From a virus (lineage: Duplodnaviria > Caudoviricetes), in the IMG/VR virus record IMGVR_UViG_3300009684_000146, positions 1 to 27,127 of that record: a stretch of 27,127 nucleotides of DNA; one strand, given 5' to 3'. The notes below the pieces were generated by a model. That model had not been told where the DNA came from. It saw only the letters and a program-made list of their open reading frames with translations, and did not search any database. A program made the position numbers and the translations under genes. Positions 1 to 20,757 of this stretch are shown here, one piece after another (the first letter of the stretch is position 1; the number at the start of each line of letters is the position of its first letter).

Positions 1-3000
1 AGCGGCATCGGATACGTTTTGTTGTCTGTCAACCATGTCTTGAGCATACTGAGCTGCTGCTTTGTCTACCTTGTGTGTTGCCCAGTCTATATTGGATACG
101 TCAACTCCTTTTTTCTTTAATTGTTTTTTGTAATAAGAAATAAATGAAGCTCTTGCGATGAATACGTCAGGTTTTTTTAAGAAAAAATCAAGATATACTT
201 CACTTGCCTTTTTAATAAAATCTAAAGATTTTTGTCCTTTATGTTTTGATGCTTGTTCTAAGTATTTATTAGCTGTGTTTATGGTTAATAATGACTCCAT
301 GCCCCTATTTGCAATAGGCATACCTAGTTCATTTATCCAATTATTTACATCTTTATTAAAAGCTAACTTAACATCTAACATTTCACCTGTATTAATTAAT
401 GTATTGAAAGCAACTGGAGCAATTTGTTTCACAGGTTGAGTAACCCCACCAAGAGTTAATGCTGCTCCAATAGACCCAATAGCGTCTAATGTTTTATTGA
501 TTTCTTGTATTGATGTTTTTGAAACATAGTTCTTGCCTCTAATTTCTCCAATGTATCCATTAATTCTGCGTTTAATCAATTTAACATCGTCAGACTTTCC
601 TAATTTATTAAATTCTTTTGAATTCATAAATCCATCAATTCTTCTTATTGGAGCTGCTGTTTCAAGATCTACCATTGCTGCTTCATATGCTCTGGCATTA
701 TTAGTGTCAAAATCAAAACTAACAACTCTATTGCTGTTTAATTTAGCTGGCTTAACTGCCTCCATAAGGACTCCTGTCTTTTTCTTTACAGTGTAATCCT
801 TCGTGGTCATCATGAACGCTGACTTTCTTAAATTGTCAACATCTTCTTGTGCCTCATCTGTTTTGTCATAAACATCAGGGGTATAGTTTTGATCTTTTCC
901 AAGGTCAGCATTATATATGTTAAGGGATAAATCCTTAAGGCGATCATAATCATTACTCCAATTATTAATCCACCAATCAACAGCGTCTCTATTATCTTTA
1001 CTGGCAGCATCAATAACGTCTTGAACTGTTTTTGCATCCTTGCCAATTCTGTCATATGTTTCTTGTATTATTTTAGCTTTGGCAACTTCTTTTTCATTGC
1101 CATTCATCATTTTCTCTATGCTTTGCTCAATAAGGCCTTTTCTTCTTTCTAATTCTTCTTTAGTTTCGTTTGTTCTAATCAAGAAAGAAAGAACGCCTCT
1201 TTCAATATTATTCTCAACGGTAAAGAAATCTTTTACACCTTTGAACTGTTCAACGTATTGAATTAGTTTTTGATTTGCAATTTTCCTTGCTTTTGCATTA
1301 CCATTTACAATATCATTAAAACCACTCAACGATCTAAAAATAGCAGATCTATCTTGGCCATTTAATGCTTGTTCTAATAAAATATTTAAGTTTGTTATAT
1401 TCTCTCCAATCGCTCTACCTATTTTGCTTGAGAAAAATAATTTCAAGTCTCTAAATTTAGCTCCTGTCTTTTTAAATTTCTTAAAGTTTTCTGATCCGGC
1501 ATAAGACTGAACAAGTCCACCCATTCCGTCTGTTATGCCATTTGTGATAAAATTAGACAAATACTCTAATGCTAATTTAGCATCTTGTATAGACATATTT
1601 TCTATGTCCATATTTAAGAATTGTTTAAGAACTAATTTTTGATCATCACTTAAATCAACCGGCAATCCAGTAACAGGGTCAACTCCTTCTGATAATATTT
1701 CTTTTCCTATAGCAGACAAAGAGTTAAACATCTTAACAAGATACTGTCTTACGTCTTCACCTTTGTCAATTGCTTCTTGGGTAGCATTGTCTTCAATGCC
1801 ATCGATGACCTCGATGATATCTTCATAGCTCATAGAGTCATCTAATATGCCAGCATCAACTAGATACTGATATTCAAGAAGAAGATCATTCTTTATTTTA
1901 TCTGCTTGTTCTTTTGCTGCGGCTTCTATATATTTATTGACATCTTTAATAACAGCTGGTTGCGTGCGCATAACAGCTTGTAATACTTGATTAGAAATAG
2001 ATAAGTATTGATCAATGTCAGACAATTTCTTAGGATTTAATGTCAAGAAATTCTTAGCCATTGTGCTAATAGTTGCCTGAACATTGTTTCCTTTATAAAG
2101 TCTTTTTATCTTATTTTTATTTTCATTTGCTATTCTAATCTTGTCAGCATATTCAGCATCATTAAAGACTTTTGTCATATAATCAACAAACCTATTAACA
2201 ACAACAGGGTTTTGAAGATTAATCTTGCCAAGCCTATTTGTAATAGTTTTTGCTTGTCTTGCTGAAATCTTACCTCCTTTTTCAAGGGCAGCTATCTCAG
2301 ATGATAAATTTTTTCTTAATTCATTGATATATTTAACAGCATCTTTAGCAGCTTTTACTTCAAGTTTTATTTGTTCTTTTAATGCAGTTGCTTCATTTAC
2401 TGTTACTTTGACAATATTCTTAATCTTACCAAGAATTTTGTTTACAGATGGCGCTTTCTTGAGTTTCTCTCCAAGTTCTGTGCGTAGCTCACGCTCCATT
2501 TCATTTCTTTGAACATCGTCAGCTCTCTCGTATGCAAATGTTTTCTTTAATGTACTGATAGCATTTTCTCTTGCTTCTGCAAATGTTTTTTGACCACGCT
2601 TTCTTGTCTTCTCAAAAGTGTCAAGAGACTTTTGTTTAGCCTCAACACCACCTTCAACCTGATCAAACGCTGATTTCTTTTTGGCTTCTTCTTCAATCGT
2701 AGGTTCGCCTCTTACTCCTTCAGCTTTTTGTTCTGGCAATCTTGTGCCTTCTTCTTGTATTGATGGCGCTTTAGCTTCCTGTACCCTAGGCTTCTCAGCT
2801 AACAAAGGAGTGATTAATTCATCATACTTGTTATAAATATCACTATACTTTGCTTGCTCCTTAGGAGTCATAAGATTCTTGTCTATCTCACCATTTACTC
2901 TAAATGTTTCTATGTTAGGGATAGCTTCTTCGTACTCTACTTGTTCTTTAGCTCTTAAGTCTTTTACTTCTTGGCTGACTTCTTCGCCTTGCTCGGCAAC

Positions 3001-5844
3001 GACTTGAGGTTTTGCTTCGGGTTTTCCTTGCTCCACTTCTTGGCTAACTCCGGTTTCTGGCTGTACAGGTACTTGACCTGAGCCTTGCTCTTGAATGGCA
3101 TAATCTTTTGCTTCTTTTCCTGTTAATGTATAAGAATAGCCGTCATTAACGGTTTCTTTTGTTGTTTTTCCATATGGAATACCAAGTATAGACTTTCTTG
3201 TTTCTACTTGCATCCCTTCGCTTTTCTTTGCTCTATCTCTAAATTGCTCTGGTATTTCTTCTAAAGTTGGCGCACCACGAACTATTATTTCATCATCTTT
3301 CAATGACGCTATTTCATTTGGGATAACTTCAACTTCTATAGGTTTTTCGTTTTCATTTGATTCTCCTTTTTTTAGTAATGATAATCTTTCTGTAACTGCG
3401 TTATTATACTCTTCATTTAAAGTTTCTATTGCAGATTTTTTTTGTTCCTCAGACAAATTTGCATCGTTTTTAATATTTAAGTATTGTTTCTTTACATCTT
3501 TTATTTTGTCGTAAAGCTCAACACTTCTTCTTATCTCAGACGGAGTTAATCCATCCATAATTTTTATACCTCCATTTATAAGAGATACATTCTCTTTGCT
3601 AAGTCTATCTATGGATGCTTGAATAGTAGGTTTGTTTACATCTTCAGCGTCAGCAAGAGCTGTTTCTAATTGCTTTAACTTTTCCGAGTTTGATTTTATT
3701 TTCTTTTCTGGATCATTAACAAACGGAGCAATAGCTTGCGCTGCTAATGCCGGAGCAACAGTAATAAGACCGCCAATAGTAGCTCCACCTACAAATGCAT
3801 CCTCAACTCCATCAAATATACCAACATTCTTTTTACCTAAAACATATTTATCAGCAAGGTTGCCGCCTATTTGAGAAAAGGCTTCAGCAGAACCCTCTTT
3901 AAATTGATTTGACCCAACTTCTTTACCAAGTGATATTGCGCCTTTGATTCCTTTTTTAAATTCATCACGCATCATATTTAACTCAAGATCAGTAGCTCCC
4001 CTTTTTGCAGCCTCAGATAATCTCCATGATGGTAAAGCTTTCTTCCATACTTTAATCTCTGCTTTTTCTGTAATAACTTCTAATCCACCTATCAAAAGAG
4101 ACGTTAATAGCTTTTGACCAGTGCTATATAATTCTTTACCTGCTTGTTGTTCTTCTTTTTCTAACTCTTTATATTTTTGACCAGTAGCAGATAATCCTAT
4201 AATATATGGAGCCATTCCTCCTGTATTTGCAGCTAACGCAAAATTTGCAGCTTGGTCAGCAATCAATGATCCAGAGTATCTAAAAAAATCATATGGGTTT
4301 TCTACATCTTTATAAGACATAGGTTTTGATAATGTACTTCTTAATTTCTCAGCAGATTCAATGCCTTTGCCTTCAAATCCACTTATCTTATTTCCTCCTG
4401 TAATAGCGCTTAAAACTAATCCAGTTATTTTAGATCCTCCTCCAAGAATACTTAAAGCACCAGCTTCAGCTTTTCCAACTGCATTTGAAAGTATTCCGTA
4501 ATTTCTTTTTAATAAATCGGCCTCTTGTTTAAAGTCTTGTATATTGTCATTACTATTATTCCATGCATCAAATTTATTATACAAATCCTTTGACAATAAG
4601 TTTAACTCCTGTTGCTTTGCGATAAAAGATCTCTTGTCTTCATCTGGCATAGCATTGAATTCTTCTTGAGAAATATCCGCAATCTCGCTTTTAAGAATAT
4701 CGAATTTCTCCATGTTTTTATCAAATCTTGCTTTTTCAAGTACAACTTTATTTTTCATTGACTCGATATCTTTAAGCATATTTGATTGATTGCCAGAAAC
4801 TAATGGATCTGTTATGATTTCTTTACCTGGATCTACTAAATTTATTAATGTATTTGCAAGATCTGTAGTAAACGGAGTGTCACTTGTTAGTATATTATCA
4901 ATTTCTTTGTCTATACTACCTTGTAATTTCTTTTCAGATAATATATCTTTTGCTCTTGAAATAATTTCATCGTTCGTGGCCTGTTGTTTATTCTTTTGAA
5001 ACTCTAATATTGATTGAGTGATTGCATCGTCAATAGGCCTTGAACTTGTTGACGGCAAATGAAACTTTAATCTATTATTGATTGCAGAAATTAATCTATC
5101 TGGGTCTTCTATTTTAGAAAAAGCATCTTCAGCATATTGGTTTGATTCCTCTTTAAATCCAGCAGTTTCTTTTGCCAGACCAGATTCAAGCATTGTTAGT
5201 TTAAATGAGGTATTTAACTCTTCTGGAGTAGGCTCACCTAAAACAGCAAGTTTTTTATTTAACTCAGTTACCTTTTGCTCTTCTTGAGCTCTTTGCTTTG
5301 TTGGTATTGGTGCTTTTTCTTTAATACCCAATGCAACCTCAGCAATTGGTTTAGCCGCAGGCTGAACAGGAGCTGCTTTAATAAACTTATTTGCAGTCTG
5401 TAGGTCTTCGTTAAGTAATGGATCAGAGGCTATATTGGGGTTGCTGGCACGTAACTGCTCAAGTTGTGATTGAGCATTCTTTATCGCTACTGCGTCATTC
5501 TTTTGCGCAGCCTCTTGTAGAGAACGTGTTAAGGCTTGGTGTGCTTGCCAGTCCCTAGACTCAATACCTTTATTATACGCTGATGGATTCCTTGGAGATG
5601 CCGACAAACCAATTGGTTGACCCGAAGATGAAACAGATACCCCAACGTCTTTTTTTTTTACGTCAGAGAAATACTTACTTTTAAAAGTATTTATGTCGTT
5701 TGTATATAATTCTTGCTCACTGAGTTTTTTATACAATTCATTTTGACCTTCTTCAGATCCATATTTAGCAACAAAATCATTGTAGCTATTTGTATATAAT
5801 TGTTCGCTATATAGCTTGTCGTATAATTCTTTTGATCCTGGCAT
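1..5844 (-). CDS. Giant (>1948 aa) internal virion / DNA-ejection protein, 3' end truncated by the window edge
   Basis: ATG at 5844, just after the TAA (5846-5848) of the 507-aa gene. Manual translation gives MPGSKELYDKLYSEQLYTN... and, at the edge, ...AAAQYAQDMVDRQQNVSDAA in the same frame. No stop was found, which also explains its absence from the ORF track. It is mostly helical and charged, with a Gly/Ala-rich hydrophobic region at about 3720-4500. It is the third and largest gene after the tail genes, as in podovirus ejection-protein cassettes. Confidence 0.85.
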   Translation of the reverse strand, partial: MPGSKELYDKLYSEQLYTNSYNDFVAKYGSEEGQNELYKKLSEQELYTNDINTFKSKYFSDVKKKDVGVSVSSSGQPIGLSASPRNPSAYNKGIESRDWQAHQALTRSLQEAAQKNDAVAIKNAQSQLEQLRASNPNIASDPLLNEDLQTANKFIKAAPVQPAAKPIAEVALGIKEKAPIPTKQRAQEEQKVTELNKKLAVLGEPTPEELNTSFKLTMLESGLAKETAGFKEESNQYAEDAFSKIEDPDRLISAINNRLKFHLPSTSSRPIDDAITQSILEFQKNKQQATNDEIISRAKDILSEKKLQGSIDKEIDNILTSDTPFTTDLANTLINLVDPGKEIITDPLVSGNQSNMLKDIESMKNKVVLEKARFDKNMEKFDILKSEIADISQEEFNAMPDEDKRSFIAKQQELNLLSKDLYNKFDAWNNSNDNIQDFKQEADLLKRNYGILSNAVGKAEAGALSILGGGSKITGLVLSAITGGNKISGFEGKGIESAEKLRSTLSKPMSYKDVENPYDFFRYSGSLIADQAANFALAANTGGMAPYIIGLSATGQKYKELEKEEQQAGKELYSTGQKLLTSLLIGGLEVITEKAEIKVWKKALPSWRLSEAAKRGATDLELNMMRDEFKKGIKGAISLGKEVGSNQFKEGSAEAFSQIGGNLADKYVLGKKNVGIFDGVEDAFVGGATIGGLITVAPALAAQAIAPFVNDPEKKIKSNSEKLKQLETALADAEDVNKPTIQASIDRLSKENVSLINGGIKIMDGLTPSEIRRSVELYDKIKDVKKQYLNIKNDANLSEEQKKSAIETLNEEYNNAVTERLSLLKKGESNENEKPIEVEVIPNEIASLKDDEIIVRGAPTLEEIPEQFRDRAKKSEGMQVETRKSILGIPYGKTTKETVNDGYSYTLTGKEAKDYAIQEQGSGQVPVQPETGVSQEVEQGKPEAKPQVVAEQGEEVSQEVKDLRAKEQVEYEEAIPNIETFRVNGEIDKNLMTPKEQAKYSDIYNKYDELITPLLAEKPRVQEAKAPSIQEEGTRLPEQKAEGVRGEPTIEEEAKKKSAFDQVEGGVEAKQKSLDTFEKTRKRGQKTFAEARENAISTLKKTFAYERADDVQRNEMERELRTELGEKLKKAPSVNKILGKIKNIVKVTVNEATALKEQIKLEVKAAKDAVKYINELRKNLSSEIAALEKGGKISARQAKTITNRLGKINLQNPVVVNRFVDYMTKVFNDAEYADKIRIANENKNKIKRLYKGNNVQATISTMAKNFLTLNPKKLSDIDQYLSISNQVLQAVMRTQPAVIKDVNKYIEAAAKEQADKIKNDLLLEYQYLVDAGILDDSMSYEDIIEVIDGIEDNATQEAIDKGEDVRQYLVKMFNSLSAIGKEILSEGVDPVTGLPVDLSDDQKLVLKQFLNMDIENMSIQDAKLALEYLSNFITNGITDGMGGLVQSYAGSENFKKFKKTGAKFRDLKLFFSSKIGRAIGENITNLNILLEQALNGQDRSAIFRSLSGFNDIVNGNAKARKIANQKLIQYVEQFKGVKDFFTVENNIERGVLSFLIRTNETKEELERRKGLIEQSIEKMMNGNEKEVAKAKIIQETYDRIGKDAKTVQDVIDAASKDNRDAVDWWINNWSNDYDRLKDLSLNIYNADLGKDQNYTPDVYDKTDEAQEDVDNLRKSAFMMTTKDYTVKKKTGVLMEAVKPAKLNSNRVVSFDFDTNNARAYEAAMVDLETAAPIRRIDGFMNSKEFNKLGKSDDVKLIKRRINGYIGEIRGKNYVSKTSIQEINKTLDAIGSIGAALTLGGVTQPVKQIAPVAFNTLINTGEMLDVKLAFNKDVNNWINELGMPIANRGMESLLTINTANKYLEQASKHKGQKSLDFIKKASEVYLDFFLKKPDVFIARASFISYYKKQLKKKGVDVSNIDWATHKVDKAAAQYAQDMVDRQQNVSDAA
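2964..3101 (-). CDS. Nested 45-aa basic protein (MPFKSKAQ-type small phage protein) in the +1 frame of the giant gene
   Basis: ATG at 3101 to TAA at 2964 encodes MPFKSKAQVKYLYSQKPELAKKWSKENPKQNLKSLPSKAKKSAKK. The leader is A-rich with A at -3 and -6. It resembles small stand-alone phage ORFs of pattern MPFKSxAQxxxxYxxxPxxAKxW (recognised from memory, not searched). Confidence 0.55.
   Translation of the reverse strand: MPFKSKAQVKYLYSQKPELAKKWSKENPKQNLKSLPSKAKKSAKK
5650..5659 (-). other. A10 homopolymer, candidate frameshift or transcriptional slippage site
   Basis: The minus strand reads GTA AAA AAA AAA GAC, which contains an in-frame A_AAA_AAA heptamer. Confidence 0.4.
5671..5829 (-). repeat. 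Tandem protein-level repeat (2 copies) at the N-terminus of the giant protein
   Basis: ELYDKLYSEQLYTNSYNDFVAKY and ELYKKLSEQELYTNDINTFKSKY. Confidence 0.75.
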
Positions 5845-5845
5845 T

Positions 5846-7369
5846 TTAATTTAATATTCCTTTTTTACTTGAAGACACTGGTATTGGTTGTGATGATTCT
5901 GAATATTTTTCAATATCTGGGAATGCAAATTTAGTTCCCCATTTTTGATTTATCAAAGCATTCATAACATTTTTATATTCACGCGGATCATTTGATAATT
6001 CTATATTGTATTCTTGATCACCAATAAGCTCTTTAGTGTTTGGATCGTATTTAGGTTTTGCTACTCTTATATATTTTTTTCCTTTATTACTAGGCTTGTT
6101 TCCAACCATTAAACCAATAACCCTTCCCTCATATTTAGGCATAGCAAAACTAATGTCTGCATTTTTTACAAGTCCAGCATATTTAGAGCTAGCCTTATTT
6201 GTATATATGTCGTTTAGTTGTTTAATTCTTTGAGATATATCATATACTTCCTTTTCCTCTTTTGCAATATCTTTTCGCTCAGTATAAGTAAGTTGTTGAG
6301 TTTCTTTTTCAGGCTTCTCTACTTTGTAGTCAATCTGAGATTCAATAACATCGTCTACAATTGACTTAGCCTTCTTCATTTGCTCTTCACTTAACTTCGG
6401 TGTAAAGATACCATTTTCATCTCTTACAAGCAAAATTGTTTTGTCACGCTGAGAAGATAAAGAGTTTATTTCTTTTTGTATTGCCTTCTTATCTGCGTCA
6501 GATTTCACAGATTGTCTTTGTGCAGCAAGCTTGTCAATCTGGCTATTAATCGCCTGAATTTCTTTAGCATTATTTGTGAAAGAATATTTTTCGTCAGTAT
6601 TGTCAGCCAATACACTTGCAGCTTTTCTTGGGTTGTTTGTGATGGCATCAATAATCTCTGGTTTAGTTTTGCTATTGAACTTACCCCTAATTGACTGAGA
6701 AATAACATATCTACCGTTAACCATTCTTGCCTCTGATCCTAAGTTCTTCACATAGTTATTTACCTCGTTGGAAATATTAAGCTTATCTACGTTCTGATTC
6801 AATCCGGCATTTATAGTTTGAACATCATATAAATCAGCGTCACCTACAACCTTTCCAGTTTCTGGGTCAACCTTAGCAATATACATTCTGCCATCCTTAG
6901 GGTTGATAAATGTAGTCTTGCCTTTTAAGTTAAGCAAGTCAGCTGTCATTTGTCTTTGATATAGTTCTTGACCGGCAGCTTTACCTTCCTCAATTCTTTT
7001 TAATCCTTCCTCATAGTTTGCATCGTACTGCTTAGTCAAGTCAGCAAGCCTTGACCAGCCATCTCTCGTGGTTGATACAATTCTTGAGTACTCGCTTGGA
7101 GTAATCATTCCTCTTTTAAGCAATTGGTTTTGCTCATACAAAGAATTCCTTACATTGTTTGCGCCATCCATTACAAACTGGTTGAACGTAGGAGACTTAG
7201 ATCCTTGATACTTATCTACAATAGATACTACGTCAGAGTATTGTTTGTCTAGCTCAACTCTTTTCGCTTCTCTATCTTCTTCTACTTTGCCAAGTTTCTC
7301 TAATATGTTCTGCGTTATATTACCCCAATCAATTGGGTTCGTGGCTTGATACTGTGAATATTCTGCCAT
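5846..7369 (-). CDS. Putative internal virion / ejection protein (507 aa)
   Basis: Long ORF with a helical, charged N-terminus. It lies between the small Gln/Ala-rich protein and the giant protein, the usual order in podovirus ejection cassettes. Confidence 0.6.
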   Translation of the reverse strand: MAEYSQYQATNPIDWGNITQNILEKLGKVEEDREAKRVELDKQYSDVVSIVDKYQGSKSPTFNQFVMDGANNVRNSLYEQNQLLKRGMITPSEYSRIVSTTRDGWSRLADLTKQYDANYEEGLKRIEEGKAAGQELYQRQMTADLLNLKGKTTFINPKDGRMYIAKVDPETGKVVGDADLYDVQTINAGLNQNVDKLNISNEVNNYVKNLGSEARMVNGRYVISQSIRGKFNSKTKPEIIDAITNNPRKAASVLADNTDEKYSFTNNAKEIQAINSQIDKLAAQRQSVKSDADKKAIQKEINSLSSQRDKTILLVRDENGIFTPKLSEEQMKKAKSIVDDVIESQIDYKVEKPEKETQQLTYTERKDIAKEEKEVYDISQRIKQLNDIYTNKASSKYAGLVKNADISFAMPKYEGRVIGLMVGNKPSNKGKKYIRVAKPKYDPNTKELIGDQEYNIELSNDPREYKNVMNALINQKWGTKFAFPDIEKYSESSQPIPVSSSKKGILN

Positions 7370-7371
7370 AA

Positions 7372-8202
7372 TTATTTTACGAATGGATTATATGCGCCAA
7401 ACAAATCATTATCATATGTGCTTTGAAATGGGCTAACTGATTGACCAATATTTGGGTTTCTTTGAAATGTAGCCAAAGGATTGTATTGTGAATTCTCCCA
7501 ATATTTTGCTTGAAGTCTTGGAGCAGGAGCAGACAATCCAGCTTCTGTAGCCGTAACTAAACCACTCTCCGGACCTGTTAAAATACCTGGATTTACTGAT
7601 TGTTGTTTTTCTGTTGCAATGGTATTTATTGTTTTTGCAGGAGTTTTATCTTTCTCATACAATGGTCTATTCTTCTCATATTGAACAGCCAATTCTCCAA
7701 TAGTTCCGGCAGCACCAGTAAGACCAGCGTTAATATTTGCCTGACCTTGTGCTCTTGCCATTTGAGCTCCTTGTAATTGAGATGTTAAGAAGTCATTTTG
7801 TTGTGCAATCTTACGAGCTTGCATCGCTTGCTCTTGTTGTGCAACAAATGTATCTCTCTCATATTTAGCCTGATCAAGTTGAGCGGCCAACTGTAAGTCT
7901 TGCGCAGTACCTTGCTGGCCAACACCTGGCAAGCCACCTAATACAGCAGCAGCGCCAGCACCTTGTAATGCCTGCACCTGATTCGCTGTTCTTTGAGCAC
8001 CCGATTGTTGCGCTAACTGATAACCAAGTTGTGGCACTTGTACGCCAGCAACTCTGTTTTGTTCAGCCAACATTTTTTGTTGTGCTCCAATGTCAGCAGC
8101 TGACTTAGCAGCAGCCTTCTCTTGTTGTACTCCTTCGTATGTTTGATATGCGTTAAGAGCCAATCCAGCTCCTGCAACCAATGTAGATGTTAATGCAGCC
8201 AT
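7372..8202 (-). CDS. Putative internal virion / ejection protein (276 aa, Ala/Gln/Gly-rich)
   Basis: Hydrophobic N-terminus MAALTSTLVAGAGLALNAY, Gln/Ala coiled segments and Gly/Ala stretches, typical of the first small ejection protein (T7 gp14 / P22 gp7 position). Confidence 0.65.
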   Translation of the reverse strand: MAALTSTLVAGAGLALNAYQTYEGVQQEKAAAKSAADIGAQQKMLAEQNRVAGVQVPQLGYQLAQQSGAQRTANQVQALQGAGAAAVLGGLPGVGQQGTAQDLQLAAQLDQAKYERDTFVAQQEQAMQARKIAQQNDFLTSQLQGAQMARAQGQANINAGLTGAAGTIGELAVQYEKNRPLYEKDKTPAKTINTIATEKQQSVNPGILTGPESGLVTATEAGLSAPAPRLQAKYWENSQYNPLATFQRNPNIGQSVSPFQSTYDNDLFGAYNPFVK

Positions 8203-8205
8203 GTT

Positions 8206-8616
8206 TTATTGTTTTATAAATACTAATTCTGTGCATCCTGTAGAACCCTCCAAGAAGCCAAATTCTTTCATGCTTTTTATCAATGAAGGGTTCTTCATTG
8301 ACGAGTAGATGTATGTTTTGTCAGATAAGACTGACATTGCTTTCACAACCTCAATCATATACGCTAACGCATTCTTCCTCAATACTTTATCTTTTACTTC
8401 AAAGTTACTAACGATAAACTCTAACCAGCAAATCTTTGAGTTTGTCATGTACAAAAAGCAGGCACAGATATCTACGCCATCTTTTGAAACCATAACTCCT
8501 TCTAAATTAAAAGGTAAGAAATCTCTCGCAGGGGCATCCCATCTCCAATCTTTCCACCATTTCTTTAAAATGTTCTCGTAATCAGATTCTGAAATGACTC
8601 TTGTTTCAAACTTCAT
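8206..8616 (-). CDS. GNAT-fold acetyltransferase-like protein (136 aa)
   Basis: GNAT-like layout: ETRVISESDYENILKKWW helix, beta strands GVMVSKDGVDICACFLY and CWLEFIVSN, then NPSLIKSMKEFGF. It sits between the tail and ejection genes, as in many podoviruses. Confidence 0.55.
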   Translation of the reverse strand: MKFETRVISESDYENILKKWWKDWRWDAPARDFLPFNLEGVMVSKDGVDICACFLYMTNSKICWLEFIVSNFEVKDKVLRKNALAYMIEVVKAMSVLSDKTYIYSSMKNPSLIKSMKEFGFLEGSTGCTELVFIKQ

Positions 8617-8636: not shown

Positions 8637-9431
8637 TTAAGGGTAACTTTTAAATACTTCTGAAGATACTTGAAAAACTTCTATAGAATCAGTGTTTGTA
8701 CTATCTAATTGTACATCCATATAATAGCCTCTTAGTCCAAATGATTCTGATACTGAATTCTTTACGGACAAAATAAAGTCGCCTACAGTTGGCGCAACAA
8801 GAGTTCCTGTTGCGTCAGCAATAATTCGTATAACTGTCCTGTTTGTTACAGGGTTGTATGTCTTTGTAGATGCCATACCACACTTTGCTTTTGCGGCTAA
8901 TGATCCATTGATTCTATAAATGATGTCACCGCTAAATCTACCAGGGCTATTTAGATTGACATTGTCTCCAACCTTTCCGGCAAATGTAATGTCTACAAAG
9001 CCAGCGCCAGAAGAAACAAGCAAAACTTCAGATACTCCTTGAGCCGATAAGTACACTGTATTCGACTCATTGTCCTCTCTGCGGATATAAGCAAACCACA
9101 TCCCTTCCTTTTTTACAAAGTTATCATTGTTAATATTGCCGGATCCAAGATTAGATAAAACTTGAGCTCCCCAACTATCGCTTGCCTCAAGATGCAATGT
9201 CTTAAACATCTTCTGTTCGTCAGGCGCATCGTTGAATATTGTTCTTACAGAAGAGTTGTATTGCGTCCCATAAAAGTTATTATGTACTGAATTGGTATTG
9301 TGCTTCCATATTTCGCCATTAACGAACGTGTAGAAGTTGTTATTCATATTTGCCATCCAATCAGGAAAGTAAGAATGAAATGATGTCCATCCAGCCAAGA
9401 CGGGAGAGTATGTTAATGTATAGTTCGCCAT
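8637..9431 (-). CDS. C-terminal part of the tail stabilization (muzzle / P22 gp10-like) protein, encoded as a separate gene (264 aa)
   Basis: TLTYSP..GWTSFHSYFPDWM..MNNNFYTF..GEIWKHN...NNFYG, KMFKTLHLE, FVKKEGMWFAYIRR and GLRGYYMDVQL motifs are typical of the C-terminal region of crAss-like tail stabilization proteins. Confidence 0.7.
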   Translation of the reverse strand: MANYTLTYSPVLAGWTSFHSYFPDWMANMNNNFYTFVNGEIWKHNTNSVHNNFYGTQYNSSVRTIFNDAPDEQKMFKTLHLEASDSWGAQVLSNLGSGNINNDNFVKKEGMWFAYIRREDNESNTVYLSAQGVSEVLLVSSGAGFVDITFAGKVGDNVNLNSPGRFSGDIIYRINGSLAAKAKCGMASTKTYNPVTNRTVIRIIADATGTLVAPTVGDFILSVKNSVSESFGLRGYYMDVQLDSTNTDSIEVFQVSSEVFKSYP

Positions 9432-10387
9432 TACTGCAAATTTAATCTTTTTTTGGCGGAGTTCTCAATCCACCTCCAATACAAGTAAGAACACCTGTTT
9501 GGATCTAATCCTTTTATATCCAATCCGATTGGATCTACATTGACATATTTGCCCTTTACAAACATACCAGTGCTGTCATCTATGGCTCCGGCATTATGAT
9601 AAAAGCTAACTTTGTCCCATCTTGGTGCGCCACACGTTGCCCATGCAAAGTCAAACTCTGGCACAACTTTAGTTTCTATGCCTCGTTTCCATAAACACCA
9701 TAGCTCGGCCCACATACTGGCACACCATATCTGCACACCGTAAGGGTCACCGTGTTTCTTTTTATCTTTTAGTTCTCCAAGGCCAAAGTACAGCGCATTG
9801 CTAATATCCTCAACCTCTTGCCAGTAATCAGCGTCAACGCCCTTCAGTAGTTTTTGTGCACCACCGCTCATCATTTCGTTGGCTTCAACAATATGATGGT
9901 CAATGCCAGCTAACTCACACATTTTTAAGAAGACATCTTCGCCCTTACTTTTGATATACTTTGCGCCAATATAACTTATCGTATCGGATAAATAGCAGAT
10001 ATTATCGTATCTATGCGTATCAAAATTCATCGGCCTTGTAAATAAAAAATCACAATCGTGATAAAAGATGTCACAGTTATCTGGAAATTTGTGACACACT
10101 TTCTTTAATATATGCGGCTGTATAGATGGCGCATAACCTTTGTTATCTCTCGTGTCCTCTGCGTAAATTAAATTTACTTTTGGATACATTCTCTGGCATC
10201 TCAGCCAAGATGCCGGCAAATCAATGTCTATGGCTGCGACAACATAAATATCCTTCTCATCTATTCCCATAGATGTAAAGTTATTTAAGTAAACCTCAAC
10301 CTGCCAGGCATAATAATCCGTGGCAGGTTGGGCTGAGAGATAGATTAAGGGCAATCTAGTGCTGATATCCATTGTGTGCCGTCCCAC
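9431..10387 (-). CDS. GT-A fold glycosyltransferase resembling peptide O-glycosyltransferases (HPAT/GT95, SGT1/GT96-like); start uncertain (10387, 10372 or TTG 10354)
   Basis: YYAWQVEVY near the N-terminus, YAPSIQPHIL, a DxD motif in IFYHDCDFLFTRP, QIWCASMWAELW and a C-terminal FYHNAG. The motif order parallels the Y-x-x-WQ / DxD / W-x-x-EMY / H pattern of plant protein O-glycosyltransferases. Confidence 0.7.
   Translation of the reverse strand: MGRHTMDISTRLPLIYLSAQPATDYYAWQVEVYLNNFTSMGIDEKDIYVVAAIDIDLPASWLRCQRMYPKVNLIYAEDTRDNKGYAPSIQPHILKKVCHKFPDNCDIFYHDCDFLFTRPMNFDTHRYDNICYLSDTISYIGAKYIKSKGEDVFLKMCELAGIDHHIVEANEMMSGGAQKLLKGVDADYWQEVEDISNALYFGLGELKDKKKHGDPYGVQIWCASMWAELWCLWKRGIETKVVPEFDFAWATCGAPRWDKVSFYHNAGAIDDSTGMFVKGKYVNVDPIGLDIKGLDPNRCSYLYWRWIENSAKKRLNLQ
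9437..9444 (-). promoter_or_regulatory. Candidate -7 promoter element TAAATTTG
   Basis: TAAATTTG-CAGTA-ATG, within the last codons of the glycosyltransferase gene and 5 nt before the ATG at 9431. Confidence 0.55.
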
Positions 10388-13300
10388 TGAAACGTTGCGA
10401 ATACTCCACCTAAGTCTCTCTTATACCATCCAGAGGGCGCAAGTATTGTTCCTCCAGCATTGGTGTATAAAGATCCTGTAGAGCCAAAGTTATTGGTATA
10501 GTAGTATCCAGTGAATGCGCTTGACGCACATGATGCGCCAGACGTTAATCCAAACGCTAAGCTTACATTGTAAACAGGAGGCGCTGTTGTTGTGGTGGTT
10601 GTTGTACTTGTAGTTGTACTTGTTGTTGTACTCGTGGTTGTACTTGTCGTTGTACTTGTAGTTGTTGTAGTGGTTGCGCAGTTATACTTTGCAAGAACTA
10701 ATCCTGTAATAGATATCTGTAAGGCGTATTTGTTTGCGCCTTCATTTACATAATACCACTTATTCAATCCATTGAACGGCAAAGTACCTATTGAGTTGGT
10801 ATAGATGAAGTCTCCAAGCGCAGGATATGCGCTAGCTCCGTTATGGTAAAATGTAGTTGAGTTTACACCTAAAGAACAAGAACTATACTGAGTGCTATAT
10901 CCCGTTAAATCCATAAGGTATCCAGTGAATACAGGCGCAGTCGTTGTTGTGGTTGTTGTAGTCGTCGTGGTAGTTGTTGTACCAATACACGTTGCACAGT
11001 TTGCGTAAAGAACTCTTGGATTAGGAATTAAATACCCATAAGGCTGAGCTGATACAGCCGCAGTGATTGTCCAGCAGTTTCCGTCAGACGACTTCAATAC
11101 ATTTCCTACTGATATTGATTGAGAATAAGCATCTAGCAATATGTCACTGTATGTAGTACCGCACAATGTTGCGCTATAATAATTACCTGCTGGCAAAGTA
11201 GTAGTGGTCGTTGTGGTTCCGCAATTAAATACGTCAACTACGTTACCAATATTATCAACCTTTATTGCCTGACCATTGTTTATTAAGTACCATTTGTTAT
11301 TGCCTGCCAATGGCGTAGCACCATTTTGATCTTCGTAAACAATGTCATCAACCCTTGGGAATACTGTGTATCCATTTGAGTACATAGTGACAAATGTAGG
11401 CACAGCAATAGCGCAGCACAATGATGCGCTCACTTGATTATTAACCTTATCCACTTGAATAGGTACATAATTTACCGGTTGATTATTGACAGTGATTGTA
11501 AATGTGTTTGGTGTACTTGTTCCTACGCAATTAGTTACTGTCACAGTTAAGTTATATTGCCCAAATCCAGACGCTGTCCCAGAAATTAATCCTGTTGCAG
11601 TGTCAAGTGTTAACCCTGCTGGCATACTATTGTTTTGACAAGGACCTACTAGCGAGAAGGTTACGTCTGATCCAGTTACAACTGATATTGTACCAGTAAC
11701 ATAGCATTTATAGAGAACTTGACCAACATTAACCACAACATTCTCATACAATAATGTATTTGGGTTCTGACCAGTAACAACGCCACCAACTATTCCACCA
11801 TCAATGGCATAGTTAGACGATGTAGTTGACACAGCAAAACTTGTCGGGTTATTTGTTGCAGCTATTTTAATGCTTACATCATTACCTTGGATGAATTCTA
11901 CATTGCCTTGAATAACAACTGGTACAGCAACTTCAGTACATCCGCAAGCGGTTACTGATAGAACAACACCAAAGTTATCAATCATTAACGCATAACCAGA
12001 GATATAGTAATACTTACTGTCTCCAGCAAACAATGTTGTTCCGGTAGAATTAGTGTAAATAATGTTTCCTTCAGAAGGTATGCTATTTTGTCCATTATAA
12101 TATATAGTTGTACTTGTGCTTCCTCCGCACGCAAGTGCTGAAGTAGTATAAGGCGTTGTCCCCATTGCAATTGACCTCAGTGTAGTTGCGTATGTTTGGA
12201 ATGACCATGTTGTGCTGGCAATAGGAGAGTAAACATACAAGAAATAACTTCCTGTTGTTTGCTTAACTTGTGTCAAGAACCCTACACCATTATTAACGGA
12301 GCCATTGTACGGTGAGCTTAAGTTTATATTGTCAACGCCCAATGCAACCAATGCATTATAGTTTGCTAAACTGTTTAGTCCAACATATCCACTATCATTT
12401 ATTAAGTTGTTGTTTGCATCATACAAAACAAACCTAGAAGCACCAACACCTGCGTTGTATTTTAACTGCACATTCCCTACGCTTGAACCATAGTTAAGCT
12501 CAATAATTTCAGGGTTCAATGTACCAGATGATGTAGACGATCCAACACTTGGAATGTTTACTTTGTTTCTATAGTCCCAAGTTAAGTATAAATTAGTACC
12601 ATTCGCTGCATAGTTAAAGTTTGCATTGTAAACTCCTGCGCTATAAACTGGTGTAATCTCAGTAGATGCTGCAATCAATGAATCTACGTTTGCAGGGTCA
12701 TAGGTTGCATTTGTATCTAACGAATATACTTTGTTACCCAAGCTTGGATTAAATATCTTTATATTGGATCCTTGTGCGTTTGTAGGTTCGGTGTAAGATG
12801 TAAGTGTAACAGTATCTCCAATCGCTGGGATATTGCCCTGTCCTACCACGCCAACGCTTTGAGAATATAATGACAATCCAGTTGGTTGCATTACTACGTT
12901 TGAGTACAAAGCCCCTGATGATCCTGAGCTTGTCCAATTCACGTTCTGTTGTGTTTGTGCGCCACGTTGAGATATTTGACCACCATTAGCAACCACAACT
13001 GTCTTAATAACAGCAGGCTTGTTAGACTGAGTCAATATCACGTCTTGGAATGTTCCGCAGGCATTCACTCTAATCCTTATAGACCTTGAAGCACCGGCAC
13101 CAATGTTTGACGTAAGCGTAACTTTAATAAGCTTATTACCTGTGTCAGCAACTTGAGAAAGCGTAGCCCATCCAGTTCCAAAACCATTGTCAATCAATGA
13201 CACAGTCCAGTTCTGAGATGCAGTGATAATAAATGTGTCATACGTTCCGGCAGTTCCTTCGATGAAGAAAACTGTTTTGTTGACAGAGTATGTACACAAG

Positions 13301-16300
13301 TTCACAGTCTTTGTGTTGCTTGTTAATACATACACGGCATCATAAGGATCATATGCACCAATCTTTTGTGTGTCTGGCCCACTTGAGAATAAATCTCTAA
13401 ACCAGTCTCTCATGCCTTGAGAAGATATCTCAAACAATCCAGACTCGTCAAGCTTCATCGCTGTGCCTCTTCTGGCATCAGTAAAGAAGATGTCAGATCC
13501 CCACTTCGCAAAACTCTCAGGGTTCAAGCTAATACCATATTCGCCCATATAAGGCACGGGGGTACCAAGTACTTCAGGAATAGAAGATATTGCGCCTCCG
13601 CCAATAGCATCGCTTAGTAAGTTTTTCTCGTAAAGAACTCTAAATACTTTATTTTCTTGAAATACAACTAAGTCAGTATCTCTTGAGTGCAGCTTTTGAA
13701 TGGAGCCATATGCTCTATCCAAAAACTTGAAGTTAGCTTTCGATAAGTTGAACTCATTCAATCTGTTAGTAGATGTCTCAGACTGATATATTTGTGAATA
13801 TGTAATGCCAGACTTCGCATTGCTTTGCGCATAGTTAGAAATGTATGAGTTAACTCTTGGAGTATTCCCCATAATAGGCTGGTTAAAATCATCTCTAACT
13901 CTATAACTCTCAACCCCATTACCAAAAGAGAATGCATTAAAGTCATTAATCTGCAATGTTGCAATACCATTTAATACTTGACCAACATCTCCAGAAATAT
14001 TTGACTTATGAAGCTTTGTAACTCCATCGGAAGCAGTTACAATAGGATATGTCGTTGGTATCTCATAGAATATCTCAGAGTTATTATCCTTTCCAATTGT
14101 TTCAAGTACTATAGGGGATTGACCAGCAGGAATATAAGTAATTTTAAATGTAATTGTATTTTGAGGAATTGAATTATAACCACCTCCATTTGAAAAATCT
14201 TTTTGACTATTTACATCATATCCTTTGATATACATTTGAATAGGATTTGGCGATAAACCATATCCATATTTTCTAAAGAAAACATTAAATGAACCATGAT
14301 TTACTCCGTCTTCAGAATATTGTTTGAATTTAGTATAAATCTGATCTTCATAAAACCACTCTTCAATATTTATATAATCAGAAGAAGCAATAAATGTTTG
14401 TTCTGGTTGATCTGCTGCGCCTTCGCTTTCAGATACATCTATTCTAATAGTATCTCCAGCTTTTATGTTATCTAAAGCTAAATGAGCAAAACCACCATCT
14501 CTTTGATTAATTGTTTTAAAGTTAATAGGTCCTCCAAAAACATTGGTTCCCCCAGAATCACTTCTACAATTTATTCTCCAAGAATCCCCAATTGTATATC
14601 CAGATGTTGATCCAAATATAATAAGGCCTACGGATCTACCAGAGGCATCTTTTAAAAGATTACCTTTCTTCAATCCTACGCTATCTTTGTTTACAGCAAT
14701 GTTTGATTCAATTGGTGTAGATAAATTAGGAAACAAAAAATAACTAAATGTGCTTATACCAGCTGTATTTGTTCCTGTTATTTTAACAACATATCTAGCG
14801 TCATTAGCTCCGTTGTAATTAGGTATGGCAGTAAGCTTATTATTGCCAGTTCCGTAAAATACTGGAGTTTCTATTGCCGTATATCCCTGATAAAATCCAA
14901 GAGTTACTTCAGGATAAAAAGTATCTCTATTATTTGCTTGTCCTTTGTTTTCAAAAACTTTTTCAGACCTGGATATTTTATTAAATAAAGATCCTTCAGA
15001 TTTAATCTTAATGTAAAATCCTTCAGGTTGAGTTGTTGGAGAGTTATTTAAGAAATTTACCGCCTTCATGTCTGCTTCAATAATCTTGTATCTTTCAGCA
15101 GAACCAGTTGCTCCAGACTCAGTAGACTTAATTGTTAAGTAAGCATCCTTTTGTACTTTGTCAATATCTGACTTAGGGATTAAGAACCAAGTATATAATC
15201 CATCTTGAAAATAATCAACCGGGAATACGTTATAATACTCTGATTTGTTTTGTTTTATAAAGAATCTATACTTTGTTGCAAAGCAAGGAGCATAGTTATT
15301 TACCTTTACTTTCAATAAGTTTTGTGCTGTAGACGCACTAGCTGGCACATGAACCGTGTTCCCATCAGAGGTAAGAACAGTTGTCATTCTGCCATAGTCA
15401 TCTAAATACACAATCCCTAACTCATAATCCCTGTCGCTTTTAAATGTTTTTCTTGGAACACCCTTAGTTACTACCGGTATAGAATTCAATTCAGCCTTAA
15501 GACTAACATTGATAGGCACTTGATTACAGTCAGCGATATCATAGAACTGAGTGTAGTTACCATAAGATAATCTGTTACCAATATACTCTTGTGCTTTTGC
15601 CTTCAATGGCACGTTGTCAAACAACCTTGTCAATTGATCTTCTGGCAAAGCAGCGTAAGCTTTGTTGTTTTGAAATTTAAACTTATTTGATAAAGCTGTC
15701 GCCTTGGTTATGTTCTCAATAATGTTTGCCGTCAATGAATAGCTGTCCTTAAATATTAACTGAACCTCTTTTACATTGCTGTCTCCAAAGTCAAAAGTAA
15801 TATCAACAGTATTGTTTGCATTGACCATTGATTTATTACTGCCTGTTCCATAGTCATATGAAAATACCTTAGGAAAAAATGCAACATCAGAGAATGGCGA
15901 TAATGCACTATATTCATTATCAAGGTACTTATATCTATAAGCAAACCTTATAAATCTCTCGCTGATATTATTTACGTCAGTACCATCATTGCTCATTACA
16001 ATTGTAGGCGCATTCAATGGAGGAGCCAAGATCACAGAGATGTCTTTGTCTGTAAACCCATCTAAGGCATATGTTCTTGTTACATTTATTTTTCTTGGTG
16101 GGTTTAATCCATCTGTCCAATACAATAAATTATCAACCAAGTTAACGCCAGTAATTAAATTATTAGTGCTAAACTTCAAATACTCAACCGGAGCTCTACC
16201 AACGCTTTCTATTAACAATATATATGTCTCTCCTGTTCCGTTTGCATTCTCATGGTATTTCACAACCATATTAAATATGCCCTTCACAAAATAGTATATA

Positions 16301-19356: not shown

Positions 19357-20757
19357 TTAGTTACGGAATAAGAAGAAGTTGTTAGCTCCCAAGGTGCACA
19401 ATGCACGCTCAGACAAGAAATGAACTTGCATAGCATCCAAGTCACTAGTAGTTGCACCACCGGCAGAACCAGTAATCCAAGTTTTGTAACGACGATCTTC
19501 AGTTTCGCTAGCTCTATAACGAACGTGCAAGAATGGACGTTTAGCGTTCTTACCTAACACTTGATCATAAACGCTAGTAGAACCTGCTGGTACTAATACA
19601 CCGTTTACAACACCACCATTAATACCACCACGTAAAGTAGCGTCATTAAGATATTTCCAGTCAGTTTTGTAGAACTCATAGCTACCACGTTTGAAGCCTT
19701 TGAAGCCCAAAGTTAATGCCATATTCTCGTCATTGTCAAACAAACCAAAGCTTGTTCCACCTGCACCGTAGCTGTTTTGAGCAGCCAACATATCATCAAT
19801 ATCCAAAGAGAATTGACGATTGATGAATAATGCGTTTTCTTGGATAGCTCCTTGTTTGTCAAGACGTTGCAAGATAGCATCGAAGTCAGCTAATGCAGTT
19901 GGGTTTCCACCGCCCCATACGTTACCACGGCTATTAACAACGTAGAACAAACCTTCAGAACCCTTGTTTCCAACGTCACCAGTAACTGCGATAGCTCCAG
20001 AAGAAGCTTCAGCAGGAACTGCTTCAACCATAGACATCTCTAAGTAGTCATCAAAACGTAAACGAGTTTCGTGCTCTGATTTCAAATACCACAAGTAACC
20101 TGTAGCACCGTTCTCAGTAGTAACTTCTACCCATCCGATTTGAGCCATGTCAGAACCAGAAACTTCATATTTGTCTTTGATAATGATTGGGCTGTTAGAG
20201 AAGATATCATCTTGCCCTTCCAAAGAACCAGTCATACCATTAGAACCTTTTTTGAATTCAGAACCGTAAACAAATGCACTAGATGCAGTTGATACAGGAA
20301 TTTGTTGTCCAGCAGCAGCATAATATGCTACAGTGAAAGTTAATCCACTTACAGCAGTGATGATTGCTTTGTCACTTGCTGTTCCACCTGCGTTACGAGA
20401 TAAGAAAACAGTTTGACCTACTCTGAAGTTACAAGCAGTAATACCTGAATCTGCAACAGTCCAAGTAGCAGTAGCGGAACCAGCAGCAGCACCAGAAGTA
20501 CAACTAGAGTACTTTGTATGCAAACGACCTTGTTCAGCCCATTTGATTAAGTCGGAGTTACTTGGCATCTCCGCACCGACCATGCGTAAGAAAGATGCAA
20601 TTGAACGATTACCATATCTTTCAAATTCTTTTTCGTAAGTATCAGGAAGATACTGGTTCAAGAAGTTGAAGTTGGTAATATAGTTAGTAGGCAATGTTGC
20701 CTTTACTGATGAGGGGGTTAATGCGAAACCCGGACTCGATAATACTGAACCAGCCAT
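19357..20757 (-). CDS. Major capsid protein (466 aa, HK97-fold expected)
   Basis: Follows the portal and scaffold genes, has a nearly pure-A leader and a downstream terminator. Motifs IKWAEQGRLH, VYGSEFKKG, PIIIKDKYEVSGSD, GSEGLF and FLSERALCTLGANNF are typical of Bacteroidota podovirus / crAss-related MCPs. Confidence 0.88.
   Translation of the reverse strand: MAGSVLSSPGFALTPSSVKATLPTNYITNFNFLNQYLPDTYEKEFERYGNRSIASFLRMVGAEMPSNSDLIKWAEQGRLHTKYSSCTSGAAAGSATATWTVADSGITACNFRVGQTVFLSRNAGGTASDKAIITAVSGLTFTVAYYAAAGQQIPVSTASSAFVYGSEFKKGSNGMTGSLEGQDDIFSNSPIIIKDKYEVSGSDMAQIGWVEVTTENGATGYLWYLKSEHETRLRFDDYLEMSMVEAVPAEASSGAIAVTGDVGNKGSEGLFYVVNSRGNVWGGGNPTALADFDAILQRLDKQGAIQENALFINRQFSLDIDDMLAAQNSYGAGGTSFGLFDNDENMALTLGFKGFKRGSYEFYKTDWKYLNDATLRGGINGGVVNGVLVPAGSTSVYDQVLGKNAKRPFLHVRYRASETEDRRYKTWITGSAGGATTSDLDAMQVHFLSERALCTLGANNFFLFRN

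Follow-up and report, generated by a model that had tools for sequence, protein, structure and literature searches.

The window, by which we mean the whole stretch of 27,127 nt that was analysed (viral record IMGVR_UViG_3300009684_000146), is the structural module of an Elemovirus-like podophage of Bacteroidota. Its genes run in the order terminase, portal and capsid, followed by adaptor and muzzle-like genes, then by genes for proteins of 136, 276 and 507 aa, and finally by a giant gene that overlies a much smaller one. The viral record is about 43% complete and contains a single copy of the nested gene family. The features concerned are:

1..5844, minus strand: giant virion protein gene (1948+ aa), cut off at the window edge, mosaic with a modular middle; BLAST matches to phi18:3 gp123 (E 5.5e-17) and phi38:1 gp101
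2964..3101, minus strand: nested gene for a 45-aa basic protein of the PHROG 1375-like 'MPFKS' family (phrog_1375, E 0.0016)
3102..3126, minus strand: start context of the nested gene, with A at -3 and -6 and no Shine-Dalgarno sequence at -16..-5; about 19 nt are common to relatives L013 and L038 (same family) and L257 (DUF6496 gene)
3102..3356, minus strand: in-frame module of 255 nt (85 codons) that L037, a close relative, lacks at its nested ATG; L013, L038 and L257 have a related module ahead of theirs
3336..3356, minus strand: displaced earlier start; in L037 this context stands before the nested gene, in the window before a 6-codon +1 ORF (matrix score 2.0)
5846..7369, minus strand: gene for a 507-aa protein (phrog_35506), by position likely the second ejection protein, conserved just upstream of the giant gene
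7372..8202, minus strand: gene for a 276-aa virion structural protein (phrog_13764), likely the first ejection protein; its homologue phi18:3 gp120 is structural by MS/MS
8206..8616, minus strand: gene for a 136-aa conserved protein (phrog_17252), used as independent anchor; a homologue is annotated as acetyltransferase subunit (MW202828)
19357..20757, minus strand: major capsid protein gene; closest named relatives ctfjg026 (65%), Maribacter phage Panino (56%), Elemovirus (51%) and Callevirus (42%)
21925-24357, minus strand: portal gene (phrog_6547)
24357-26570, minus strand: terminase large subunit gene (phrog_6681)

The giant gene and the reading frame nested in it

The giant protein aligns with gp123 of phage phi18:3, which is structural by MS/MS according to its GenBank note, and Kinase-PolyVal domains occur in the giant proteins of two relatives (L016 and L039). 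Judged by gene order, it is likely the largest ejection or internal virion protein. The layout of P22 and T7 comprises an acetyltransferase and three ejection genes, and the order in the window resembles it. The C-terminal 967 aa of the window giant gave no match among named phages. Further along the module, the C-terminal domain of the crassvirus muzzle (PF25729) forms a separate 264-aa gene (8637-9431, minus strand), and the remainder of phrog_14478 is found in a 2069-aa gene (10345-16554, minus strand) which also has Ig-like domains.

The nested frame is exactly as an earlier note on this DNA had described it, a 45-aa ORF on the minus strand from an ATG at 3101 to a TAA at 2964, in the +1 frame of the open ORF 1..5844. 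The main-frame residues under it (915-960) do form the acidic linker that was claimed, with a net charge of -7, and the nested peptide, in which about 30% of the residues are lysine, has a charge of +12, a pI of 10.3 and a mass of 5.2 kDa. When the main-frame protein was recoded synonymously, the ATG and 45 open +1 codons were retained in 176 of 1000 cases, so that the existence of the ORF alone is unsurprising; the caveat that a Glu/Gln-rich frame yields a Lys-rich +1 frame was justified to this extent, but no recoding came near the family score. Against a family profile built without the window peptide (alignment A4), the latter scored 61.0 bits; the recodings averaged 5.8 bits and did not exceed 27.5 (0/1000 as high). 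Another +1-frame ORF in the giant gene, of 75 aa (828-1055, minus strand; start score 1.4), lies outside the 25 largest recurring clusters and is probably due to chance.

Conservation, selection and start signals

Among the best 80 of 425 confirmed viral matches, every copy starts with ATG and is read in +1 relative to an open frame that spans 387-3336 codons. Matches were found in 68 Elemovirus records, beneath a giant 'structural protein'; the cultured Flavobacterium phage elemoA has an intact, unannotated nested ORF of 42 aa, with its ATG at position 54224 of MT497017.1 in the +1 frame of elemo79Aphanotate_90, and a nested copy is likewise present in ctfjg026. In order to avoid selection by the peptide itself, an anchor set of 84 loci with the 136-aa neighbour was used (best 80 of 594 matches returned), which is only partly independent, as 15 of the 22 rows in the anchor alignment stem from peptide-selected loci. 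At 48 anchor loci at least 1400 codons of the giant gene are visible, and 37 of these have a nested member of the family, 6 a different nested gene and 5 neither; the other 36 are too short, with a nested gene still present in 6. The comparison of homologous giant genes proposed in the earlier note thus came out in favour of an ATG and an open +1 frame in both sets. No family copy was found in the whole genome of phi38:1 or in those portions of the Panino and phi18:3 genomes that were examined, and because neither gene was detected in four anchor-selected loci and phi38:1, the nested gene is not universal. The net charge of the gene products ranges from +5 to +21 across all three sets.

Several other +1-frame ORFs were encountered in the giant genes. 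In relatives, the middle of these genes holds at least four more recurrent families, with start-context scores well above background (L074:6358, L075:6358, L078:6355, L103:14749 and L111:16174; L017:7069, L040:7807 and L108:16219; L034:6655 and L152:15823; L008:1935, L013:6853 and L043:6838), and these may be more nested genes on inserted modules. The giant gene of elemoA (MT497017.1) contains, at L081:13987 and near codon 1097, a 10-codon truncated duplicate of the nested-gene start and another lysine-rich +1 ORF of 40 aa with a terminal lysine run. Two lysine-rich +1 ORFs without a family match occur in gp123 of Cellulophaga phage phi18:3 (Pachyviridae; L091:27662-27814 and 28508-28621). Six giant genes (L029, L076, L123, L138, L145 and L160) look split or short near or past the nested gene, possibly due to assembly frameshifts.

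Substitution patterns indicate which of the two frames is constrained. For 86 unique nested DNAs, the hidden frame had a pN/pS of 0.08-0.18 and the main frame one of 2.3-4.0, in a set that represents the commonest subtype and was picked by motif, which inflates conservation. A less biased test compared close pairs, 13 in all and disjoint, after alignment by their giant proteins. Inside the overlap (473 codons), mismatches per codon at main-frame positions 1, 2 and 3 were 0.135, 0.040 and 0.019, as compared to 0.108, 0.074 and 0.222 outside it (20229 codons). The overlap mismatches are thus concentrated at main-frame position 1, the wobble position of the hidden frame, which is the kind of shift that the earlier note had advised to look for. 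Amino-acid entropy was 1.24 bits in the main frame versus 0.46 bits in the hidden one. Where a T-ended codon would create a stop in the main frame, 0 of 1159 codons end in T, versus 112 of 1039 elsewhere; at Phe3, where TTT would put a stop in the giant frame, all 86 nested copies use TTC, while TTT is found in 35 of 65 free copies. Purifying selection acts on the hidden-frame protein, and the giant frame is kept open at the cost of codon choice. With a complete ATG-to-stop ORF, purifying selection on the inner frame and an open outer frame, the locus has these three characteristics of a nested same-strand gene. The earlier note had offered a dual-coding overlap and an out-of-frame capture reused as linker as alternatives; capture and dual coding under protein-level selection turn out to be compatible, and reuse as only a linker is rejected because the captured-looking gene is still under such selection.

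Start contexts were scored with a matrix trained on 672 ordinary gene starts. True starts had a median of 4.75, the 91 unique nested contexts one of 0.89 and the 13394 remaining +1 ATGs one of -5.43; the P value of this test is overstated, since the nested copies are kin. In 63 of 125 copies the nested ATG ranks within the top three of its own gene. The window start has the A residues at -3 and -6 on which the claim of a Bacteroidota-like start was based, but its matrix score is only -3.3 (rank 32 of 88 +1-frame ATGs), a weak context as a whole; the terminase start scores still lower (-6.0). According to PMC6847099, Bacteroidetes do without Shine-Dalgarno sites and prefer A at -3. The 4 of 91 nested starts in the Bacteroidota group that have GGAG or GAGG at -16..-5 are consistent with this rule. 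Outside this group, such a site precedes all 12 nested copies (38-66% GC), as compared to 31 of 686 control +1 ATGs in the same genes. The start signals of the nested gene thus differ between phage groups. Of 125 copies, 35 have a +1-frame stop 0-2 codons ahead of the nested ATG (immediately ahead of it in 4), an arrangement that speaks against access by frameshifting. On these sequence criteria, the nested gene is very probably real and translated.

A free-standing family and a slot with two occupants

The sequence family to which the nested gene belongs is large, with 2767 clusters at E <= 0.001, and among the best 150 clusters the module is mostly located N-terminally, in small proteins or in fusions of 100-380 aa (in P0024, P0044, P0064, P0128 and others it is N-terminal to phrog_7595 or DUF5661). 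A scan of 80 loci seeded with other family members gave 65 free-standing copies, 13 nested in giant genes and 2 over a likely shadow ORF; the last two (L176 and L177) overlap a 268-codon ORF in another frame at 63% GC and were treated as free-standing. Named free-standing copies are found in S-CBS2, P-RSP2, C75C1, 023Pt_psg01 and FlowerPower (gp48), and those of C75C1, S-CBS2 and P-RSP2 had been left unannotated (L082:5001, L083:5001 and L085:5001). The earlier note was therefore right in recognizing the motif as one of small stand-alone basic phage proteins, and the absence of free-standing homologues, which it had named as a ground for refutation, does not apply. The window peptide matches PHROG 1375 at E 0.0016, and free relatives reach values as low as 3e-7; the bridge to PHROG 1375 and to gp10 of phage Patience runs via Barnyard gp9 (hhalign of A4 to Barnyard gp9, 96%). 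PHROG 1375 (Barnyard gp9, Patience gp10, cluster B, D and H mycobacteriophages, Gordonia phages) shares the pattern F-[KR]-S-K-x-Q ... A-x-K-W ... L-P and comprises basic proteins of 40-70 aa. In its actinophage members, which are free-standing, a basic N-terminal extension replaces Met-Pro, whereas the nested form is unannotated. In all, the family occurs in phages of Bacteroidota, Cyanobacteria and Actinobacteria that differ in morphology. Two other resemblances were not retained as homology. DUF3008 (PF11450) appeared only as a language-model neighbour (0.84, share 15%), and neither the peptide nor ten relatives had a Pfam hit to it; P0018, a DUF4379 repeat protein, matches profile positions 13-29 only, a motif-level resemblance.

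Since the family is mostly free-standing, the nested gene was likely captured, not born by overprinting; a de novo origin does not fit the 2767 clusters and the 65 of 80 free-standing loci. A one-step capture is feasible, since 7 of 60 free copies have no stop in the -1 frame to begin with; among the 14 with a GC content of at least 55%, there are 5 such copies. The nested giants from the seeded scan are barely or not BLAST-related to the window group in 12 of 13 cases, several match internal-virion or DarB-like families, and three are remotely homologous at the N-terminus (E values between 4e-9 and 9e-5, reversed controls giving no hit; detected with the N-terminal profile only, as a C-terminal profile missed its own controls and was discarded). 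One ancient capture and repeated captures are thus indistinguishable. Free, nested and adjacent un-nested states have all been observed. The last is represented by L142/G016, in which the gene directly follows the stop of the giant gene, with TTT and a closed -1 frame, suggesting that it is the product that is retained and not the overlap.

The slot can also be filled by a gene of a different kind. This alternative occupant is DUF6496 (PF20106; Pfam cut-off reached in 3 of 6 tested), which resembles the MPFKS family in being a small basic phage protein (PHROG 2423) in the same +1 slot of sister phages and is nested in 28 of 30 loci. Homology between the two was not detectable (hhalign 0.4%), and the window peptide has no Pfam match, DUF6496 included. 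No MPFKS member was found in 11 DUF6496 records (6 complete), and no DUF6496-type match in 26 near-complete MPFKS records, using a narrow profile of 7 rows that found 4 of 4 positive controls. In the anchor tree the occupant types interleave among close kin, with 5 changes for DUF6496, at least 2 of them forced by well-supported branches; this tree is weak (96 rows, 140 columns, quick method; L142 labelled 'none' in spite of its free copy) and cannot order gains and losses. Junctions coincide with the nested ATG, both between the window and L037 and in L257, where a DUF6496 gene lies behind the window-type module and start context. One giant gene carries two near-identical DUF6496-type genes 1125 nt apart (L291/L292; G007:C1:32371-33645). 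It may be, with even chances for and against, that giant ejection genes hold a swappable gene-in-gene slot, for which unrelated small basic genes would be captured in the +1 frame with host-matched starts, exchanged by recombination at the ATG and used to make an interchangeable virion peptide, and that this recurs across phages with different translation signals. The slot might then, at the same even chance, be seen as overprinting in reverse, in which a large gene grows over a small one.

Possible functions and significance

For the nested peptide, AlphaFold predicts helices at residues 6-15 and 17-26 and a loose basic tail (mean pLDDT 74). No fold match was obtained in the PDB by sequence or with Foldseek, the Foldseek viral search gave only family members at E >= 0.6 and the best VIA-align Z was 2.9, a 45-residue helical model being a poor query for such searches. 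Free copies are often adjacent to genes for terminase, portal, scaffold or capsid proteins. Of the 101 nearest neighbours scanned, the majority had no match to a PHROG at E 1e-5; those identified include two terminase genes, three portal or adaptor genes, two scaffold genes, one tail fibre gene, five phrog_7595 genes and two ribonucleotide reductase genes. The cluster B mycobacteriophage copy is located outside the structural operon, among non-structural genes. In PMC4324244, Patience gp10 was counted as a virion protein with 1 particle spectrum, as compared to 605 for the capsid, and gave 5 spectra at 30 min and 2 at 2.5 h. PMC7247149 lists phAPEC6 gp161c as detected in virions; the N-terminus of this protein is a remote look-alike (hhalign probability 42%), and several virion-annotated gp161c orthologues do not align across it. 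At least one phage thus produces a family member as protein (Patience gp10), and a virion location is plausible but weakly supported. We tentatively regard the nested peptide as a possible DNA-binding internal head peptide, at somewhat less than even probability, in view of its charge and size. Small basic core peptides such as the T4 internal head proteins are produced late and are proposed to reside with DNA in the head. No sequence or fold similarity to these was found, and the analogy is functional only.

The explanation that we favour as a whole, with a probability just short of even, is that translation of the nested gene would start at its own ATG on the late structural mRNA and give a 5-kDa, two-helix peptide with a charge of +12 that would bind and neutralize DNA within the phage head. 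An older free-standing gene would have been captured into a tolerant acidic linker, with the ejection protein reading through its -1 frame; the slot would later have been exchanged through recombination at the ATG, and occupants of the MPFKS and DUF6496 types would do the same job.

The main rival, which we consider rather unlikely, is that the peptide works in the infected cell and not in the virion, on a conserved nucleic-acid target such as the nucleoid, the ribosome or replicating DNA. A universal target fits the wide host range and the differing morphologies of the phages, and the higher gp10 counts at 30 min than in particles and the position of the cluster B copy point the same way; yet the nested copies are locked in a late structural gene, the un-nested copy remains alongside it, and the identified neighbours of free copies are often head or packaging genes. 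It is improbable that the peptide is a dedicated chaperone or counter-ion partner of the overlying acidic ejection protein, as Rz1 is a partner for Rz. The same DNA does specify a +12 peptide and a -7 linker, and distant phages also show such nesting in giant genes of the internal-virion type, but such charge complementarity follows from the genetic code, most members are free-standing, including those of siphoviruses that lack such an ejection gene, and a single, poorly conserved partner would need to accommodate two unrelated folds.

Three further explanations, all of low probability, deal with the reading frame instead of the peptide. If the act of translating the inner ORF mattered, by tuning or protecting a very long mRNA, with peptide sequence being secondary, acceptance of unrelated genes by the slot and the recurrence of additional +1 ORFs with fair start contexts on inserted modules would be expected; the near invariance of specific residues that are common to free-standing genes, and the persistence of the L142 gene outside the giant gene, make this highly improbable. 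Still less probable is a +1 frameshift by which ribosomes would enter the ORF and end a shortened giant protein with a basic tail. The upstream DNA is A-rich, and in the database protein P0017 (1075 aa) the N-terminal 1033 residues of the giant run in frame into the peptide, but this is a single record that may reflect an assembly frameshift or a natural truncation, and against it stand the invariant ATG, the Shine-Dalgarno sites aimed at it in the other phage groups and the +1 stops close before it. The least credible alternative is that of a dead captured gene or a by-product of the Glu/Gln-rich linker, with selection on the main frame only. The open frame in many recodings and the existence of truncated relics, such as the duplicate in elemoA, would suit it; with substitutions and entropies that follow the +1 frame and a profile score far above all recodings, it is effectively refuted by the pN/pS values, the close-pair mismatches and the Shine-Dalgarno counts.

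Complete small genes inside another gene, in a shifted frame of the same strand, are well known from the Rz/Rz1 spanin genes of lambda and from genes B, E and K of phiX174. The present case resembles these in that the inner gene has its own start and both frames are open; it differs in that the inner gene comes from a large free-standing family, was apparently captured and dominates selection, and in that the slot takes two unrelated families. A spanin pair of the Rz/Rz1 type was considered and rejected, as the peptide has no Cys or hydrophobic signal and its context is an ejection module with no lysis setting. Embedded out-of-frame ORFs on the same strand, with ribosome-binding sites and peptides detected by MS, have been described for Patience (PMC4324244), with ambiguous or no conservation and no close relatives, whereas the nested MPFKS gene is deeply conserved and has free-standing kin. 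In a literature search with thin coverage of subscription journals, no paper was found that describes the nested arrangement in ejection genes, nor any report of capture of a free gene, dominance of the inner frame or exchange of unrelated occupants.

The work adds an unannotated and strongly selected gene to common aquatic phages of Bacteroidota, including the cultured and directly testable Elemovirus, and provides a clear case of an overlap that arises via capture of an existing gene, not by de novo birth. The replacement of PHROG 1375-like genes and DUF6496 by each other in one slot suggests a common function, and if the function is indeed common, a single experiment could assign two large families.
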